In this document: one piece after another, positions 1 to 64,000 of the stretch
Numbering within the stretch: position 1 is the first letter of the stretch
Layout: every line of letters begins with the position of its first letter
Source: Schmidtea polychroa
Lineage: Eukaryota
NCBI GenBank assembly: GCA_044892525.1
Contig: CM097885.1
Span: forward strand, 186,001-250,000
DNA: 64,000 bases
Direction: 5' to 3'
Made by a program: the position numbers and the translations under genes
Notes under the pieces: generated by a model
What the model was told of the DNA's origin: nothing
Databases searched by the model: none
What the model saw: only the letters and a program-made list of their open reading frames with translations

Positions 1-360
1 ACTGTTGAGGGGACAGTGAAAAAAAAAAAAAAATACCACTGTCCCCTCAGAGCAGTTTTACTATTTTTCATTTATTTTTTAATTTATATAATTTAAAATC
101 AATAATCTGATAAAGATCAAATAGCCCTCTAACTTTTTCATAATGCCATTTTCTTTTCTATTCTCTTTTTAGTTTGAAGTTTTTGAGTTTGAGGCTTTAA
201 AGATTAAAACAGTTAGAGTCATTAAGGGTGGTTGTTTTCAAAATATAGGGTTAAAATACTATAAAAGTATAAGTTTTAGGTTGTTTTTCTAACAGCTTAA
301 GTGATTTGGAGGCATCTTTTTGTAGGGGGCTGTTTTAGTTGGGTATATAACCACACTACT
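1..360. mobile_element. Right terminus of a Polinton-like element (element A, partial)
   Basis: Non-array sequence ends in ...CCACACTACT at 360 (reverse complement AGTAGT..., the same terminal hexamer as element B). It joins precisely to the HMG spacer at CATTAT, equivalent to 2502 in the next unit. No genes are visible and the left end is outside the window. Confidence 0.6.
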
Positions 361-1040
361 CATTATATAAGGTTTATATTTTCAAATTATGTAAATAAAA
401 GTGTATTTTTATCAAAAAGGTAAGTTAAAGCTTATAATTTTAAATAAAGTAAATTAAAGAATATGTTTGGTAAACAATGGCTATATTTTAAAATTAAGTA
501 AATTAAGGGATAAATCTATAAATTAAGTATATAACTGGCTATATTTTAAAATTAAGTAAACAAGGGTTACTTTTTCAAAATTAAGGGATAAATTTACTAA
601 TATGGTAAATTAAAGGCTAAATATTTGAATTAAGTAAGGTAAGGGTTATATTTTAAAATTAAGAAACGTTTAGGCTGTATTTTAAACCGGAGGTTCGTGC
701 TCCCGTGGGTCACTGACTACGTACTCTGTAATTTCCAAATTTTACATTTTGAATTTCTAATGAGTTTTTAGTTTGATTTTAGTTGAACTTCATTTGATCT
801 TAGACCATTTATTGTTAGAAGAACCCTCAATGTTCATAAAAATAATTAGGTTTCGGGACTTTCATTATCGTAAAACATAGTTGTTCGTAAATATTTAGTC
901 ATTTGTGGAAGTAAAATAAATTTAAAGTAAAATTTAAAAAATGACTAAAATAACCAATAAAATCATTGTTAAATATAATTAATTACATATTTGTTACTAT
1001 TTATACTATATTAAATCAAATTCTTAACCAAACGATAACA

Positions 1041-1619
1041 ATGACAACCAGAAAACCTTCAGGATCAAAATCTGCATATATTTGCTTTATGCAGTCATTC
1101 AGAGAAAAATATAAAATCAAATACCCAAATATCAAACCAAATTTTGTTGAAATTTCGAAGCTCGCTGCAGAAAAGTGGAAGAAAAAACCAGAAATTAAAA
1201 AGGCGAAGTTCCGTGAGTTGGCAGTAATTGACAAGAAACGTCACGATGACGAAATGGTTAATTACAAACCGAGTGAAGCAGACATTAAAAAGAAGGAAGA
1301 GAAGAAAAAAGCAAAACGAGCAGCAAAAGATCCAAGAAAACCAAAACAGCCAGTGAGCGCTTTTCTGTTTTTCTGTGCTAAATTTAGAACTTCCGTTAAA
1401 AAGTCAAAACCAAATTTTAAAATTGTTGATGTTTCCAGAGAACTGGGTAAAATGTGGAAAGAATGCAAGGAAAGAGATGAATATGAAAATATGGCTAAAA
1501 TAGCAAAGGCAGAATATGAAAAAGAAATGAAAATATATAATGACATTATAAAAAGAGATTTAATTAAAATTGAAGATTGTGTAAAAAAGGAATTTGTAGA
1601 GAATACAATTTCTGATTGA
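1041..1619 (+). CDS. HMGB: HMGB-like protein, two HMG boxes, no acidic tail (192 aa), copy 1
   Basis: Box A RKPSGSKSAYICFMQSFREKYK...AEKWK and box B KDPRKPKQPVSAFLFFC...ELGKMW match HMGB1/2 boxes. ATG 1041 is shared by all copies; the upstream TTG start at 966 is open only in this copy. Confidence 0.9.
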   Translation: MTTRKPSGSKSAYICFMQSFREKYKIKYPNIKPNFVEISKLAAEKWKKKPEIKKAKFRELAVIDKKRHDDEMVNYKPSEADIKKKEEKKKAKRAAKDPRKPKQPVSAFLFFCAKFRTSVKKSKPNFKIVDVSRELGKMWKECKERDEYENMAKIAKAEYEKEMKIYNDIIKRDLIKIEDCVKKEFVENTISD

Positions 1620-60207: not shown

Positions 60208-60986
60208 AAGTTTAATTAATTTATTTGTATTTATATGTTATTATATTTATAATAATAGTATAAAACTAAATATGATAAAATTATGTAATGTACTATGTAT
60301 TGTTAAAACCATTTTAATGTTTTTATGTAATGCGTAATTTTGTTTTCTTGTATATTTAAATTATTGTATTTTTATCAAATATAATAAAAAATAACAAATA
60401 AATCACTTTCTAATTTTAGACGTTATGTAATTTGTTTACAGTATGATAGTATTATGATTTGTTTTCCGTGTTAGGCAAATTAATTAATTATAAATGAATT
60501 TTCAAAATTACTCAAAATTGCAAACATTATTTCAAAAGAAAAATGTTAGTTTCAATGTTATAATTATTAATATTTTCTCTCATTAATAAAAATAATAAAA
60601 TTATTTTGAAAACAATTGCTATTTTCTTTTATATAAAACAGTAATTTTTTTAGTGTTTCACTTCAATATCAACTTTTCTTTCTTTATTGGATTTTGCTTG
60701 TTTTATTTTAAATTTATCTAAACTCTATTACATTGAATTTGTCTTGTCTTTTTTAACAATCAAAACAATGTTTTATTGTTGCTTAATTTGAGTTACTCAA
60801 CTTTTTATGTATTCTTTCTGGCATATATATTTGTTAAGTAATAGGAATTTCGGTGAATATATAGAAGTTTTTGAAATTCACAAATTTTCGGAACTGCCTT
60901 TTTCAATGAATTTGAAATTCAGATACACCCCTATCAAGTGCTCCAGAAGCGTAATTGCTATGCAATGAAAGTTAAGAATGTTCAAG

Positions 60987-63900
60987 AGTATGGTATTGTG
61001 TGGACCCGGGAACAAAGACATTTGACGTCATCGATGGCGTCACAAAGACATATGACGTCATACCCCCATACCCCGCCGGGGGAGAGGAATTTTTTTTTAA
61101 ATTTTTTTTTAAATTTTTTTTAAAATTTTTTTTTTAAATTTTTTTTTAAAAATTTTTTTAAATATATTACGTTGCGTTATTTAAATATTGAAATATATTA
61201 CGTTGCGGTATTTTAAAATTTATTATATTTTAAATAATAAATATATTACGTTGCGGTACTTTAAAATTTAAAAACATATTTTGACGGTTAAGTTGACAAA
61301 ATAAAATTATTATTACACACAATGTATATATAGTCTATCAGACAAGATATTCTGTCCCCCTATGTTCACACACAATGTATAAAAATATTATTAGTGTCCA
61401 CACACGCAACAAGTTAGCGTTCTCATCGATAGCTCATCTTAAAGTCTAGTATAAGATCTATCTATTGATATATTATTATTATTATTATTATTATTATTAT
61501 TAATATATATATATATATATATATATATATATATATATATATATATATATATATATATATATATATATATATATATATATACTCCGAGTCTATCTGACAA
61601 AATATTCTGTCCCCCTATGGGTAATGCTCACAAAGGTAAAGGTCACAAATATTCAAAACAAACCTTTAACAAAGAAATTCTAAATATTATACTTTTAATA
61701 TACACTAAAATTTAGTAACACACTGGATAAAGGTCTCAAATGTAACTAATGTACTGTTAAAAATATTCAAAACAAAACTTTAACATATTATTATTACACC
61801 CAATGTATAAAAATTGTTCACAAAGTTACTGTTAAAAAATATTCAAGACAATAAGATCAATACATTTATTAAATAATTTAACCACATTATCGAAAATAAT
61901 CATGTCCAAAATAATCATCATTTGCTGGATCATAGAAATCATCTGTATCATCTGCTGTGATAGCTTCCGTTGAATCTATAAATATATCGGTGTCACCGCC
62001 CCTATAATGTCCATATGCCAAACTTTGATTTTTATCCACCCAATTTCGCTTATCATCTCTACATGTCAAGGCTCTTTTATTATTTTTAATACTAAAAAGT
62101 TGGTGATTTTTTGACGTTATTCTAAACTGAGGGACTGTGTATATTTTATCATTTAAATAACAATCTAGATACGACTGATGTGTTAGTCCAGTATCTTTCA
62201 TACTTATCCCCTTAGCCTTCATACTTTCCTCATCACCCATCAAACTGTAACATTTAGGTCTCAAGAACACCCAATCTTTATATAATTACCCTTTATTCTC
62301 GTCTTTGAATTAACCAATAACAGAATCAAGGTTCCTACTATATAAAGGATGATTTGGGTCATAATTCGAAGTATCTAATAATTGATCTCTAATCATCGCA
62401 GGTAAAAGATGTCAAGACTACAATGTTTAATTTCCAAGAAGAAGGAATATGTGTCCCCAGCAACGATATTAATTTCGCAGTCGAATTCGTCGCGATATTT
62501 TTGCAACTCTTCATACTGCAGCTGGTACATCCTGAGTTTGGATAATCTAGTACAGTTTGACCAATGTAACTAGGTCTATTCAAACACACTATGTCCTTCT
62601 TCAATAAAACCGAAATCAAGTCATCATCGATTTTCGTGGATTTACGAAAAGTCGGTTTCGAACAGAATGTTAATAATCTCTGTGAAGAATTACACAGACG
62701 TAAATTAATACGTTTTTTAAGATTTTCAACAGTCTTGCCGTAAAGACTGTTGTTTAATAATTTATAAAAAATTTTATCGAGTTTATTTGTCGACGCTGCT
62801 CGTAACGCCGAATTTGTGTTAATATAATTTTTGAAAATTTTATCTTGTTTAAAATTAATTGCTCTATGTGTTTTTGATATTTTAACACCTAATTTAATAA
62901 ATATTTGTAGAAGCCTCCAATGAAGAACGTAGTTCCTCTTGGGGCTGTGTGTAAGCAACAGCTTCTCTATTTTCGAACCCGGTACACACATCTTTTCAGC
63001 GGCAACGGGAAGATCGTCCAGTTTGTCGTGAATTGACATCGGTATTTCTAAATCCACTTTTATGGTATAACCATAATCAAGCAGATCTAAATCTACCATT
63101 GTGCATTCAACAATTATATTATTTAATAAATTATCATCAGTAACCCATTCAAAGTCACTGCAAGGTAATGGTTGACTTAAAGCCCAACCGTATAAATTAT
63201 TTATATCTATGTAAAGCAAAGCGGTATCCGGGTCTGTTTTTACATAATGTTTATTTACAAAAGTTAGTCCGCCACGGATACCGCCCTCGAAAAAGTTATA
63301 CATCTCCATATCGGTGAGGAGCTCAATTGGAGAGTTTAAAGTTAATAAGGCTGAATTCCAAGACATACCTGGAATCCCTAAGAAATTTAGTGGCTCTAGT
63401 CGGTTATGAGCAATGGACTTAGCTCTAAATTGCTGGAAAAAATCGGCAAAATGGAAAACATCAAGTTTTAAATAAACCATCATGTAATCGAAAAGTGATG
63501 TACATGAAGTTTCAACCCAAATTTGCTGAGCTGTCTCATATTCAGCGGGAGTCATATCTTTCCAAATAGGAGGTAACTGACGAGTGCTATGTAAAACCTC
63601 TAATGAAGTTGCGGCATCATAAGGAAAAATTCCCTTTGCAATTATTATTGTACCCTGAAATTTTGATTCGGTCAAGGGTAAAGATGATAAAGTTTTGACA
63701 GCATTATTTAAAGACTCGCTGACAAATTGATAAGAGTCTATAAATTTAACAGTTAATGAGTCAATCCTAGCAAAAAGACTAAGGAATTTCTCGCTGGTTA
63801 AAGGAATACAATAAATATTCCATGAATGATATTTTGAAAGGCCAAATTTCAAGATATGATGCAGATCATAACCCTTTAAATTATGAAATACTACAGGAAG

Positions 63901-64000
63901 GGTATGTCTAATTTGCCTCGACAGATTACAAGTTGTACAAGCGGCACCAAGATATAGACCGGTAAAATGATCATGGGCCCTAAATGGACTAACTAAAGGC
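60987..64000. mobile_element. Polinton element D, left part (different family from C)
   Basis: The array breaks after TTCAAG (60981-60986) into AGTATGGTATTGTG. Carries the shared TATC[A/T]GACAA...TGTCCCCCTATG motif and a pPolB gene. Confidence 0.88.
61887..64000 (-). pseudogene. polB: pPolB of element D, 3' part, disrupted
   Basis: EGGIRGGLTFVNKHY, YIDINNLYG, KLLNNSLYGK and FLRPKCYS motifs. Frameshift near 62540 (VLDYPNSG instead of VLDLSKLRMY) and further lesions at ~62280-62430. Confidence 0.9.

Follow-up and report, generated by a model that had tools for sequence, protein, structure and literature searches.

The R2 element has a single conserved target in the 28S gene and is essentially confined to it. 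Chromoviruses (Ty3/gypsy) are guided to heterochromatin by chromodomains, according to the mention of Gao et al. 2008 in PMC6839031. Polintons are large DNA elements recognized by their genes, terminal inverted repeats (TIRs), 5′-AG...CT-3′ ends and 6-bp duplications, and these hallmarks and the size range are described in PMC10748475. The PLA2-like and chromodomain features of Polintons and adintoviruses are treated in PMC8502044, where chromodomains are noted in animal Polinton (adintovirus) integrases and a role in site choice is suggested.

The window, i.e., the whole 64,000-nucleotide stretch analyzed here, was proposed in an initial annotation to hold an array of HMGB genes that acts as a landing site for four Polinton families. 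If true, such a dedicated site would be a first demonstration of chromatin- or array-directed targeting by these virus-like DNA elements, and array targeting would bear on the suggested use of Polintons as vectors. The results favor ordinary integration without specificity, in a zone crowded with Polintons.

The Tandem HMG Array

The tandemly repeated unit of the array is 2,083 bp long and holds an intronless gene for a 192-residue protein with two HMG boxes. The product has two stretches matching Pfam HMG_box (E = 5.1e-28), the two-box form of HMGB-type proteins; no acidic tail is seen in the 192-aa sequence. Only four relatives were found at E ≤ 1e-3, the best being 69% identical, and the two-HMG-box gene is lineage-specific. 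The HMG family was fully scored genome-wide (90 of 90 candidates), and 10 of the 13 copies of this gene fall inside the window. The array lies 114–247 kb from the start of the 271.6-Mb contig C1 of this AT-rich animal genome, in two pieces, C1:113.5–121.5 kb and C1:186.4–247 kb. Positions in the unit are given relative to a reference copy at window 50792–52874, in which the HMG stop codon ends at unit base 1084.

Within the window, the array is broken into five blocks. The leftmost, at 361–3831 (plus strand), comprises about 1.6 units of a 2,141-bp variant, with CDSs at 1041–1619 and 3182–3760, and its 3′ end is CATTTT (3826–3831). One complete unit at 17711–19857 is inverted (minus strand; CDS 17819–18397), and on each side of it CATTTT appears in reverse complement, as AAAATG. 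A second inverted piece, at 26309–26640 (minus strand), runs from unit base 1193 down to about 821 and includes the 3′ half of the CDS; its coding part, C1:212383–212646, corresponds to residues 105–192 at 98% identity. Units in the forward orientation resume at 26909–29442 (CDS 28369–28947), ending in CTTGTT (29437–29442). Finally, six uninterrupted plus-strand units, five of them of 2,083 bp, occupy 48141–60986, with CDSs at 49214, 51297, 53380, 55463, 57546 and 59629 and a 3′ end of TTCAAG (60981–60986). The units are 99.6–100% alike, a likeness that array units keep around an old, decayed insertion.

Insertion Sites in the HMG Spacers

The four AGT-starting termini that had been placed at +103, +490, +774 and +883 of one HMG unit prove to be exactly positioned when compared with the reference unit. 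That is, CATTTT at unit base 1187 (+103 from the HMG stop) is the empty site of element B, CTTGTT at base 1574 (+490) that of C, (C/T)TCAAG at base 1858 (+774) that of D, and CATTAT at base 1967 (+883) that of A. A fifth site, TACAGT at base 1314 (+230), is occupied by a D-like terminus, D′, at C1:121470, just outside the window. The five hexamers are unrelated, which bears out the proposal that there is no strict target sequence. The termini are also distinct: the reverse complement of the A end reads AGTAGTGTGG, the B terminus AGTAGTATGATG, the C ends AGTTGATGG and AGTAGATGG, and the D terminus AGTATGGTATTG. The 6-bp duplications of B and C were verified against empty units, and CTTGTT is present once in the empty unit. 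Only one end each of A and D lies within the window.

The HMG 3′ spacers are very AT-rich; three of the five insertion points have 15–18% GC. All insertions are indeed in spacer, as had been noted, but the avoidance of the CDS carries no weight, since spacer makes up 72% of the unit (p = 0.20, n = 5). All five sites lie within 884 bp downstream of the stop codon, for which p is 0.014 when the whole unit serves as background and 0.07 when only the spacer does. This clustering is compatible with selection and could also mean a local preference.

Elements A, C and D

The right terminus of element A occupies window positions 1–360 (plus strand); it ends in CACACTACT, where the terminus pattern match stops, and CATTAT follows at 361–366. 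The whole of A is a Polinton of about 15.3 kb at C1:171018–186360. Its body encodes a double-jelly-roll (DJR) capsid protein (PF21738 DJR-like_dom, 93.1 bits), an integrase with an rve match of 45.9 bits and a PLA2-like domain, and a divergent protein-primed PolB (pPolB; 25–28% identity, E down to 4.5e-68) spread over three ORFs. Its TIR tips agree at only about 80% of positions. In the contiguous copy, CATTAT at the array end is answered by TTGAAT at the far end, where the neighboring DNA is not HMG, so this copy shows no duplication; the predicted CATTAT duplication has only half-junctions in its favor, at C1:113517, 186360 and 120810.

Element C (29443–48140, minus strand) is an 18,698-bp Polinton flanked by CTTGTT at 29437–29442 and 48141–48146. 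It combines a Polinton capsid and maturation module with TIRs and a duplication of a length in the 5–8-bp range. Between the two TIRs, identity is 84% in the first 200 bp and 91% across bases 166–811. The 809-aa ORF at 32260–34689 is assigned to pPolB through an 805-aa protein with a PF03175 match (E = 1.5e-31), with which it shares 54% identity over 665 residues; the direct Pfam scan of the ORF returned only a weak Endonuclease_7 match. Further genes are an adenain-like protease at 38152–38619 (Peptidase_C5, 26.9 bits, cut-off 21.3), a capsid candidate at 38564–39787 with weak similarity to the DJR protein of A (22% identical, E = 0.001), a 355-aa ORF at 40150–41217, an A32-like ATPase at 42919–43545 (Pox_A32, 30.5 bits, cut-off 22.8), a TBP-like gene at 43645–44082 (plus strand) and a RING gene at 30418–30744. 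The integrase gene, at 41166–42305, is broken by a TAA at 41583–41585 and contains an (AAT)41 run that reads as poly-Ile. Its rve match (E = 4e-6, 27.5 bits) is below the 32.6-bit cut-off, and it is 29% identical to the A integrase (tblastn, E = 3.5e-27).

The left end of D occupies 60987–64000 (minus strand), with a pPolB gene at 62389 (DNA_pol_B_2, PF03175, E = 2.3e-28) that runs past the window edge. D and D′ are 96–97% alike over 6.2 kb, their first 500–650 bp being only 86–88% alike, and the homology stops about 6.25 kb in, at C1:253237. A far end of D with a TTCAAG duplication had been predicted, and no inverted D terminus was found in the next 100 kb. Copies of the D family elsewhere are about 15–15.6 kb long with 6-bp duplications, and two such pairs have duplications of their own, TGCGTT and TACAAA. 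None of 29 other D-family terminus loci has HMG unit DNA within 1.5 kb, and 22 of the 29 have unrelated flanks.

Element B and the Inverted Units

B1 (3832–17710, without assigned strand) is non-coding and 13,879 bp long. Its two inverted arms of 6.6 kb, 3832–10443 and 11093–17710, are 99.2% alike and enclose a unique center of about 650 bp. Subterminal tandem repeats of 21 bp and 63/266 bp are present. A second copy, B2a (19858–26308, plus strand), is 98.8% identical to B1, has AAAATG on each side, and carries an internal deletion joining arm base ~6353 to the last 6–9 bases of the right terminus. B2b (26639–26908, minus strand) is the last ~269 bp of the B right terminus and is followed by CATTTT at 26909–26914. 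The outer duplication of the whole B region is CATTTT, at 3826–3831 and 26909–26914, with AAAATG at the inner junctions beside the inverted unit.

The longest stop-to-stop ORF in B encodes 136 aa of low complexity, and tblastn with 11 Polinton proteins gave no matches in B at E ≤ 1e-5. B resembles Polintons only in its ends (AGTAG...), TIRs and 6-bp duplication; the pairing of pPolB with integrase is missing. B is a non-coding long-TIR element, not an autonomous Polinton. Of the four Polinton families in the initial annotation, three (A, C and D) carry genes of Polinton type and B does not. Elsewhere, B-family terminus pairs are 13–16.8 kb apart, and in one place a B-like copy, with TTTCTA duplicated, interrupts the capsid gene of a C-like Polinton. 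A second family in the region likewise has 5.8-kb TIRs.

The order of the B junctions is CATTTT-B1-AAAATG, inverted unit, AAAATG-B2a-AAAATG, inverted unit fragment, B2b-CATTTT. This is the order predicted for an inversion between inverted B arms across three consecutive B-bearing units. The several B junctions fit a single insertion, after which the unit was duplicated and the TIRs mediated an inversion.

Genome-Wide Abundance and Regional Density

Whole-genome counts of terminus patterns, for which the reversed-pattern control gave zero in every family, are 1010 for A, 131 for B, 2525 for C and 832 for the D family, and all four families are dispersed over all large contigs. The pPolB motif NNLYGWALSQ has 4,676 matches genome-wide, or 6.0/Mb, which gauges the Polinton richness of the genome at no fewer than that number of motif copies. 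The density rises to 31/Mb in C1:0–420 kb (13 matches, only 2 of them in elements touching HMG units) and is 25/Mb in C1:0–1.45 Mb (36 matches) and 8.6/Mb in C1:1.45–8.93 Mb (64 matches). Polinton density is equalled or exceeded elsewhere: C1:8.735–8.851 Mb, which has no HMG gene, contains 10 pPolB-motif matches in 116 kb (86/Mb). In a further segment lacking HMG genes, C1:23.87–24.10 Mb, 10 A-family termini fall within 232 kb. The telomere repeat (TTAGGG)5 is absent from C1:0–6.78 Mb; as the contig start has no telomere-repeat cap, the term subtelomeric is unproven. The contig-end zone also shows nesting (B-like in C-like), fragments, a TE-derived satellite and a 30-kb LTR element. The presence of a giant LTR element of the Burro-like kind, together with the abundance of Mavericks, suggests that the host is a dugesiid planarian.

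A paralogous array of 21 HMG units at C1:83.086–83.155 Mb has a regular spacing of 3,430–3,457 bp, so it holds no insertions. Only ~0.4 pPolB-bearing elements would be expected there at the genome mean of 6.0/Mb, and the empty array therefore argues only against the notion that HMG arrays in general attract Polintons.

Across 264 kb of examined sequence there are 11 pPolB loci, seven of them not touching HMG DNA. The four that adjoin HMG DNA, which makes up 11% of the sequence, are an excess by binomial test (p = 0.025), as are 5 of 14 elements when B-type elements are counted (p = 0.014). For the four families alone, the expectation in 29 kb is 0.08, and P(4 or more) is still 9e-4 when a regional factor of 5 is allowed for. 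All of these tests were made post hoc, the families having been picked for being in the array. Beyond the regional density, a local excess of about 3-fold in HMG DNA relative to its flanks is left over (post hoc p ~0.01–0.03).

Origin of the Insertions

From the observed structures, duplications, copy numbers and regional density, we infer an order of events and a cause of the regional enrichment. Probably, abundant families inserted without site specificity, accumulated in a Polinton-dense contig end, and persisted only in the spacers. At least five separate integrations into AT-rich 3′ spacers would have taken place, by three Polinton lineages (A, C and D/D′) and by B. The inserting elements would be of the retroviral-type (rve) integrase kind, and the hexamer that each duplicated would be unrelated to those of the others. 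Their concentration would reflect the position of the array in a contig-end zone of about 1.4 Mb with a Polinton density 4–5 times the genome mean, and the zone itself may stem from a regional insertion bias, e.g., chromodomain-to-heterochromatin tethering, or from weak removal. Within the array, only insertions in the spacer downstream of the gene would persist. Unequal exchange would then have copied the B-carrying unit, and recombination between the long inverted B arms would have flipped the intervening units, making more junctions. Preferential retention, the second option of the initial annotation, is compatible with this account, but on the scale of the contig-end zone of ~1.4 Mb and not of the array.

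It is unlikely, though worth considering, that the contig-end domain, and the AT-rich HMG spacers most of all, is a preferred integration zone of unrelated Polinton lineages, a chromatin-tethered safe harbor in which concerted evolution regenerates clean units; tethering into the zone would proceed in the manner of chromoviruses reaching heterochromatin. Targeting of the array itself, by HMG chromatin or DNA structure that tethers Polinton integrases, e.g., via a chromodomain, and so offers a safe harbor, is likewise improbable. Five different elements do lie in 29 kb of array, at ~3 times the flank density, and C-family integrases do end in a C-terminal chromodomain-like segment, which recalls the role in site choice suggested for adintovirus integrases in PMC8502044. 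Yet the Pfam Chromo match of the C integrase (E = 7e-5, 23.1 bits) is below the 25.1-bit cut-off, and the gene is broken in the window copy; two C-family relatives give E = 6.8e-5 and 2e-3, and solved chromodomain proteins (MPP8, Swi6, cpSRP43) match the segment only at E 0.14–0.7. At E ≤ 0.1 the A integrase does not match Pfam Chromo at all, and B is without any coding sequence, so one common tether is unlikely. The families are dispersed, with hundreds to thousands of termini, none of the 29 other D-family loci is in HMG DNA, some denser Polinton clusters lack an HMG gene, and the paralogous array is uninterrupted. These observations speak against a dedicated landing site, whether R2-like or array-specific and chromatin-guided.

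Insertions would be over-counted if most of the mosaic came from one A-array-D block that was segmentally duplicated and rearranged. Both array pieces start with an A-CATTAT junction and finish at a D-type element, D and D′ are closely alike over most of their shared 6.2 kb, and all three sets of B junctions are at a single site. We consider this improbable: D entered the unit at base 1858 and D′ at base 1314, the two face opposite ways and have diverged in their first 500–650 bp, and the unrelated termini of A, B, C and D at four distinct sites require at least four or five integrations. Misassembly could also be blamed for the inverted units and the palindromic B structure, as the region consists of near-identical repeats with 6.6-kb inverted arms, and no short-read contig spans a B/unit junction with ≥31 letters on each side. 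It is very improbable given the exact 6-bp duplications at the junctions, which are consistent with the empty units, the agreement of the 13.9-kb B1 with family pairs elsewhere (13–16.8 kb), and the second local family with 5.8-kb TIRs. With non-specific insertion as the preferred reading, the locus offers a resolved case of 14–19-kb elements with long inverted ends reshaping a tandem gene array through duplication of an insertion-bearing unit and TIR-mediated inversion.

Comparison with Known Systems

With Polinton/Maverick elements of the adintovirus type, A, C and D have a protein-primed PolB in common. Taken as a set, they also show an rve integrase (in A; the match in C is below the cut-off), a DJR capsid protein in A and a weak one in C, the A32-like ATPase and adenain-like protease of C, 5′-AG...CT-3′ ends and, clearly in C, TIRs with a 6-bp duplication. 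C departs from the typical form in its interrupted integrase with a microsatellite inside and in its added TBP-like and RING genes. B departs further, being gene-free and having 6.6-kb TIRs, far above the 100–1,500 bp given in PMC10748475.

The resemblance to chromoviruses lies in the C-terminal chromodomain-like segment of the C-family integrase and in enrichment at the level of region rather than site. Unlike chromoviruses, these are DNA elements, and their chromodomain match is sub-threshold and absent in A. The locus is like R2 and R1 in rDNA in that mobile elements lie within units of a homogenized multicopy tandem gene array; it is unlike R2 in having five sites with unrelated hexamers and families of 131–2,525 termini genome-wide, a distribution that is not R2-like. 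Lastly, the contig-end zone resembles the TE accumulation zones of chromosome ends and of low recombination in its density gradient toward the contig start (31, 25 and 8.6/Mb against a mean of 6.0) and in its nested and fragmentary elements; it differs in that the assembled contig does not open with telomere repeats.

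The HMG Array

The window lies close to the beginning of contig CM097885.1 (here C1; 271.6 Mb) in a 781-Mb assembly and has a GC content of about 25%. Self-comparison gives a tandem unit of 2,083 bp, with some copies reaching 2,141 bp owing to a 58-bp additional stretch. Every unit carries an intronless ORF of 192 residues with two HMG boxes (Pfam HMG_box E=5.1e-28). Thirteen intact copies of this gene, 99–100% identical, are found: three at C1:114–119 kb and ten at 187–246 kb, the latter all in the window. A family census, in which 90/90 first-look genome candidates were scored, adds six single copies (84–88%) near other contig ends, most of them with stops, and a paralog array of 21 units at C1:83,085,862–83,155,392 (83.086–83.155 Mb), the period of which is 3,430–3,457 bp and the product of which shares 61% amino acid identity with that of the window gene. 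Additional single paralogs are present at C1:82.3–82.6 Mb. Public runs from two studies yield contigs that cover this unit at 97% or more. An Rfam search of the window gave no family at or above its gathering score.

Insertion Sites

As the initial annotation had claimed, four distinct AGT-starting termini enter the unit, and the positions that it gave for the elements proved exact when the four sites were checked against uninterrupted units. With bases numbered on the reference unit (window 50792–52874) and offsets counted from the HMG stop codon, the empty sites are CATTTT for element B (unit base 1187, +103), CTTGTT for C (1574, +490), (C/T)TCAAG for D (1858, +774), and CATTAT for A (1967, +883). 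A fifth site, TACAGT (unit base 1314, +230), lies just outside the window at C1:121470, where the terminus of D′, a relative of D, abuts an inverted unit. The D′ terminus is 88% like that of D over the first 137 bp. C (window 29443–48140, 18,698 bp) is flanked on either side by CTTGTT, and the B complex (window 3832–26908) has CATTTT at both outer sides; a strict TIR-pair (terminal inverted repeat) scan of the 264 kb of C1 that includes the window recovered matching duplications for these two only.

The five hits are all in spacer, in keeping with the remark that the CDS is never entered, but this is uninformative (p = 0.20). All five sites fall within 884 bp 3′ of the stop codon, and at three of them GC is 15–18%. 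This placement fits either selection against insertions in the gene and upstream of it or a preference for very AT-rich DNA.

Element B and the Inverted Units

B spans 13,879 bp. Two inverted arms of 6.6 kb, 99.2% alike, enclose a 650-bp centre, and tandem repeats are also present. No ORF exceeds 136 residues, and a search for remnants of 11 Polinton proteins detected none; B was therefore rejected as an autonomous Polinton. The element shares a C-rich subterminal motif with C-like ends, and this motif, together with the B ends and the 6-bp duplication, suggests mobilisation by a Polinton integrase. The copy B1 is no local oddity, since its length resembles that of family copies elsewhere (terminus pairs 13–16.8 kb apart).

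The junctions are ordered as follows: a forward unit ending in CATTTT, B1, AAAATG, and an inverted unit; then AAAATG, the B piece B2a, AAAATG, and a fragment of an inverted unit; and last the tail of piece B2b, CATTTT, and a forward unit. Several independent hits were rejected as an explanation because this order matches one copied insertion plus an inversion. That is, one B-bearing unit would have been copied to give three consecutive B-bearing units, the outer B copies would have recombined through their inverted arms, flipping everything in between, and two deletions would have come after the inversion. The empty-site unit-to-unit joint (window 19850 to 17710) is present in the X1 and X3 public-run contigs. 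Only one public-run contig crosses a B–unit junction, and its overhangs of 27 and 30 letters fall short of the 31 letters required.

Elsewhere, a C-like Polinton carries an 8.8-kb B-like element (C1:129,117–137,964) in its capsid gene, flanked by the duplication TTTCTA; the B family is thus able to insert into coding DNA. Another Polinton family has 5.8-kb TIRs (98.7% alike), each holding a whole gene for an 805-residue protein-primed DNA polymerase B (pPolB), at C1:299,246–312,513 and at many loci genome-wide. All 56 scored copies of this gene are full-length, stop-free, and essentially identical (listed at 100%), with many arranged as inverted pairs at a distance of about 9 kb. Long TIRs (5.8–6.6 kb, including those of B) seem common in the genome; speculatively, protein-primed replication may have produced them by snap-back.

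Element C

C is a complete but decayed Polinton. Its pPolB is 54% identical to a PF03175-positive protein of 805 residues, and it also carries an A32-like ATPase, an adenain-like protease, and a weak capsid candidate. The integrase is split by a TAA stop and contains an (AAT)41 run read as poly-Ile. The segment after the stop matches Pfam Chromo at E=7e-5 and 23.1 bits, under the 25.1-bit cut-off, and solved chromodomain proteins at E 0.14–0.7 at best. Two further genes were noted, a TBP-like gene on the + strand (window 43645–44082, PF00352 E=3.1e-15), 98% conserved in a C-like copy (C1:295,958–296,392), and a RING-finger gene on the − strand (window 30418–30744, E=5.7e-10).

C looks old: its TIRs are 84–91% alike, the terminus of its nearest relative is 88% identical, its integrase is broken, and it carries long (TAT), (TTA), (AAT), and (TAA) runs. 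Yet the HMG units flanking C, together with those of the sub-array at a distance of 65 kb, are 99.6–100% alike, which implies ongoing homogenisation of the array across insertions of 14–19 kb. The 2,141-bp unit variant is found left of C and just after it, and the 2,083-bp variant in five units farther right.

Elements A and D

A (C1:171018–186360) has genes for a DJR capsid protein, a divergent pPolB, and an rve integrase, the last with a PLA2-like domain and no Chromo match. PLA2-like domains are also noted in animal Polintons (PMC8502044). The CATTAT predicted for the far end of A is not there, that position being occupied by TTGAAT and non-HMG DNA. A far-end TIR does exist, but the similarity between the far and near tips is only about 80%. 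Reciprocal half-junctions nevertheless support the CATTAT duplication: A joins CATTAT and the unit at C1:113517 and 186360, and at C1:120810 the mirror junction, from unit through CATTAT into A, adjoins a 338-bp A fragment in inverted orientation.

D has a pPolB match at E=2.3e-28. Its far end, for which TTCAAG had been predicted, did not come to light, as the next 100 kb (C1:250–350 kb) hold no inverted match to the first 200 bp of D. The D–D′ homology ends after 6.25 kb, at C1:253237.

Targeting or Accumulation

HMG DNA makes up 28.9 kb (11%) of the 264 kb. It is abutted by four of the 11 pPolB-bearing elements (p = 0.025), or by five of 14 when B-type elements are added (p = 0.014), and the four families alone give P = 9e-4 even with a 5-fold regional correction; these tests are post hoc, the Polintons are visibly clumped, and the flank DNA is mostly transposon. 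A local excess of insertions at HMG DNA of about 3-fold is possible. The initial annotation took the array for a landing site, reached by chromatin-guided targeting or kept by preferential retention. Its observation is real and accurately described, but the targeting mechanism is without support, given how dispersed the families are and that clusters free of HMG DNA exist.

As to dispersal, exhaustive whole-genome terminus patterns (reversed-pattern control 0 each) give 1010 termini for A, 131 for B, 2525 for C, and 832 for the D family, on all large contigs; first-look candidate totals, such as 17,846 for pPolB, were discarded as copy numbers. Flanks were compared at 30 loci around termini of the D family only. 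HMG unit DNA is found at the window's own locus and at 0/29 others, of which 22 have unrelated flanks and seven share another repeat. D-family pairs elsewhere carry their own duplications.

As to density, the pPolB motif occurs 4,676 times in the genome (6.0/Mb). On C1 it reaches 31/Mb in the first 420 kb (13 hits) and 25/Mb over 0–1.45 Mb (36 hits), against 8.6/Mb over 1.45–8.93 Mb. Elements touching HMG units own only 2 of the 13 hits, and 7 of the 11 pPolB loci in the 264 kb lie away from HMG DNA. High Polinton density is not peculiar to the array, as HMG-free clusters at C1:8.735–8.851 Mb (10 motif hits) and C1:23.87–24.10 Mb (10 A termini) equal or exceed it. Within C1:8,764,521–8,850,667, three pPolB hits are evenly spaced at about 19.7 kb and another three at 3,460 bp, a regularity that suggests tandem Polintons or polymerase fragments.

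The 21-unit paralog array is uninterrupted. About a dozen insertions would be expected there at the window rate and about 0.4 at the genome mean; thus, its emptiness weighs only against the idea that HMG arrays in general attract insertions. Mavericks are described as abundant in dugesiid planarians (10.64898/2025.12.11.693146), and the chromodomains of animal Polinton integrases have a suggested, untested role in site choice (PMC8502044). Among the papers listed in literature searches on Polinton insertion preference and integrase target sites, none was found to report array-directed integration. Array-specific targeting is considered improbable, and non-specific integration combined with regional accumulation and the dynamics of the array is probably the correct account.

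The locus is not termed subtelomeric because C1:0–6.78 Mb contains no (TTAGGG)5 telomere repeat. The genome holds 14,057 occurrences of this repeat. Those on C1 are confined to short interstitial blocks, which begin at 6.78 Mb and are listed as far as 262.4 Mb, and C1 is uncapped at both ends in the assembly.

Neighboring Repeats

Left of A, an ORF of 375 residues with proteasome-subunit and ubiquitin domains (C1:169,955–171,079) runs into the left terminus of the element; it may be either part of a host gene or the cargo of another element. Farther left, C1:145,793–168,498, a stretch devoid of long ORFs, holds at least 19 tandem units (period about 1,244 bp). Each unit contains a stretch of about 290 bp that is 81% like the A subterminal region (A bases 1197–1478), and the array appears to be a satellite that arose from a Polinton TIR.

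Beyond D, a 30-kb LTR retroelement occupies C1:260793–290807, with LTRs of 3.7–4.2 kb that are 99.6–99.8% alike. Its ORFs of 2,581 and 2,034 residues include fusion-glycoprotein (mononegavirus-type), protease, RT, RNase H, integrase, and ankyrin domains, and a MATH/TRAF-RING ORF lies upstream. This layout, with its upstream MATH/TRAF ORF and giant polyprotein bearing a fusion domain, is Burro-like and matches the description of planarian Burro elements (PMC6431247).
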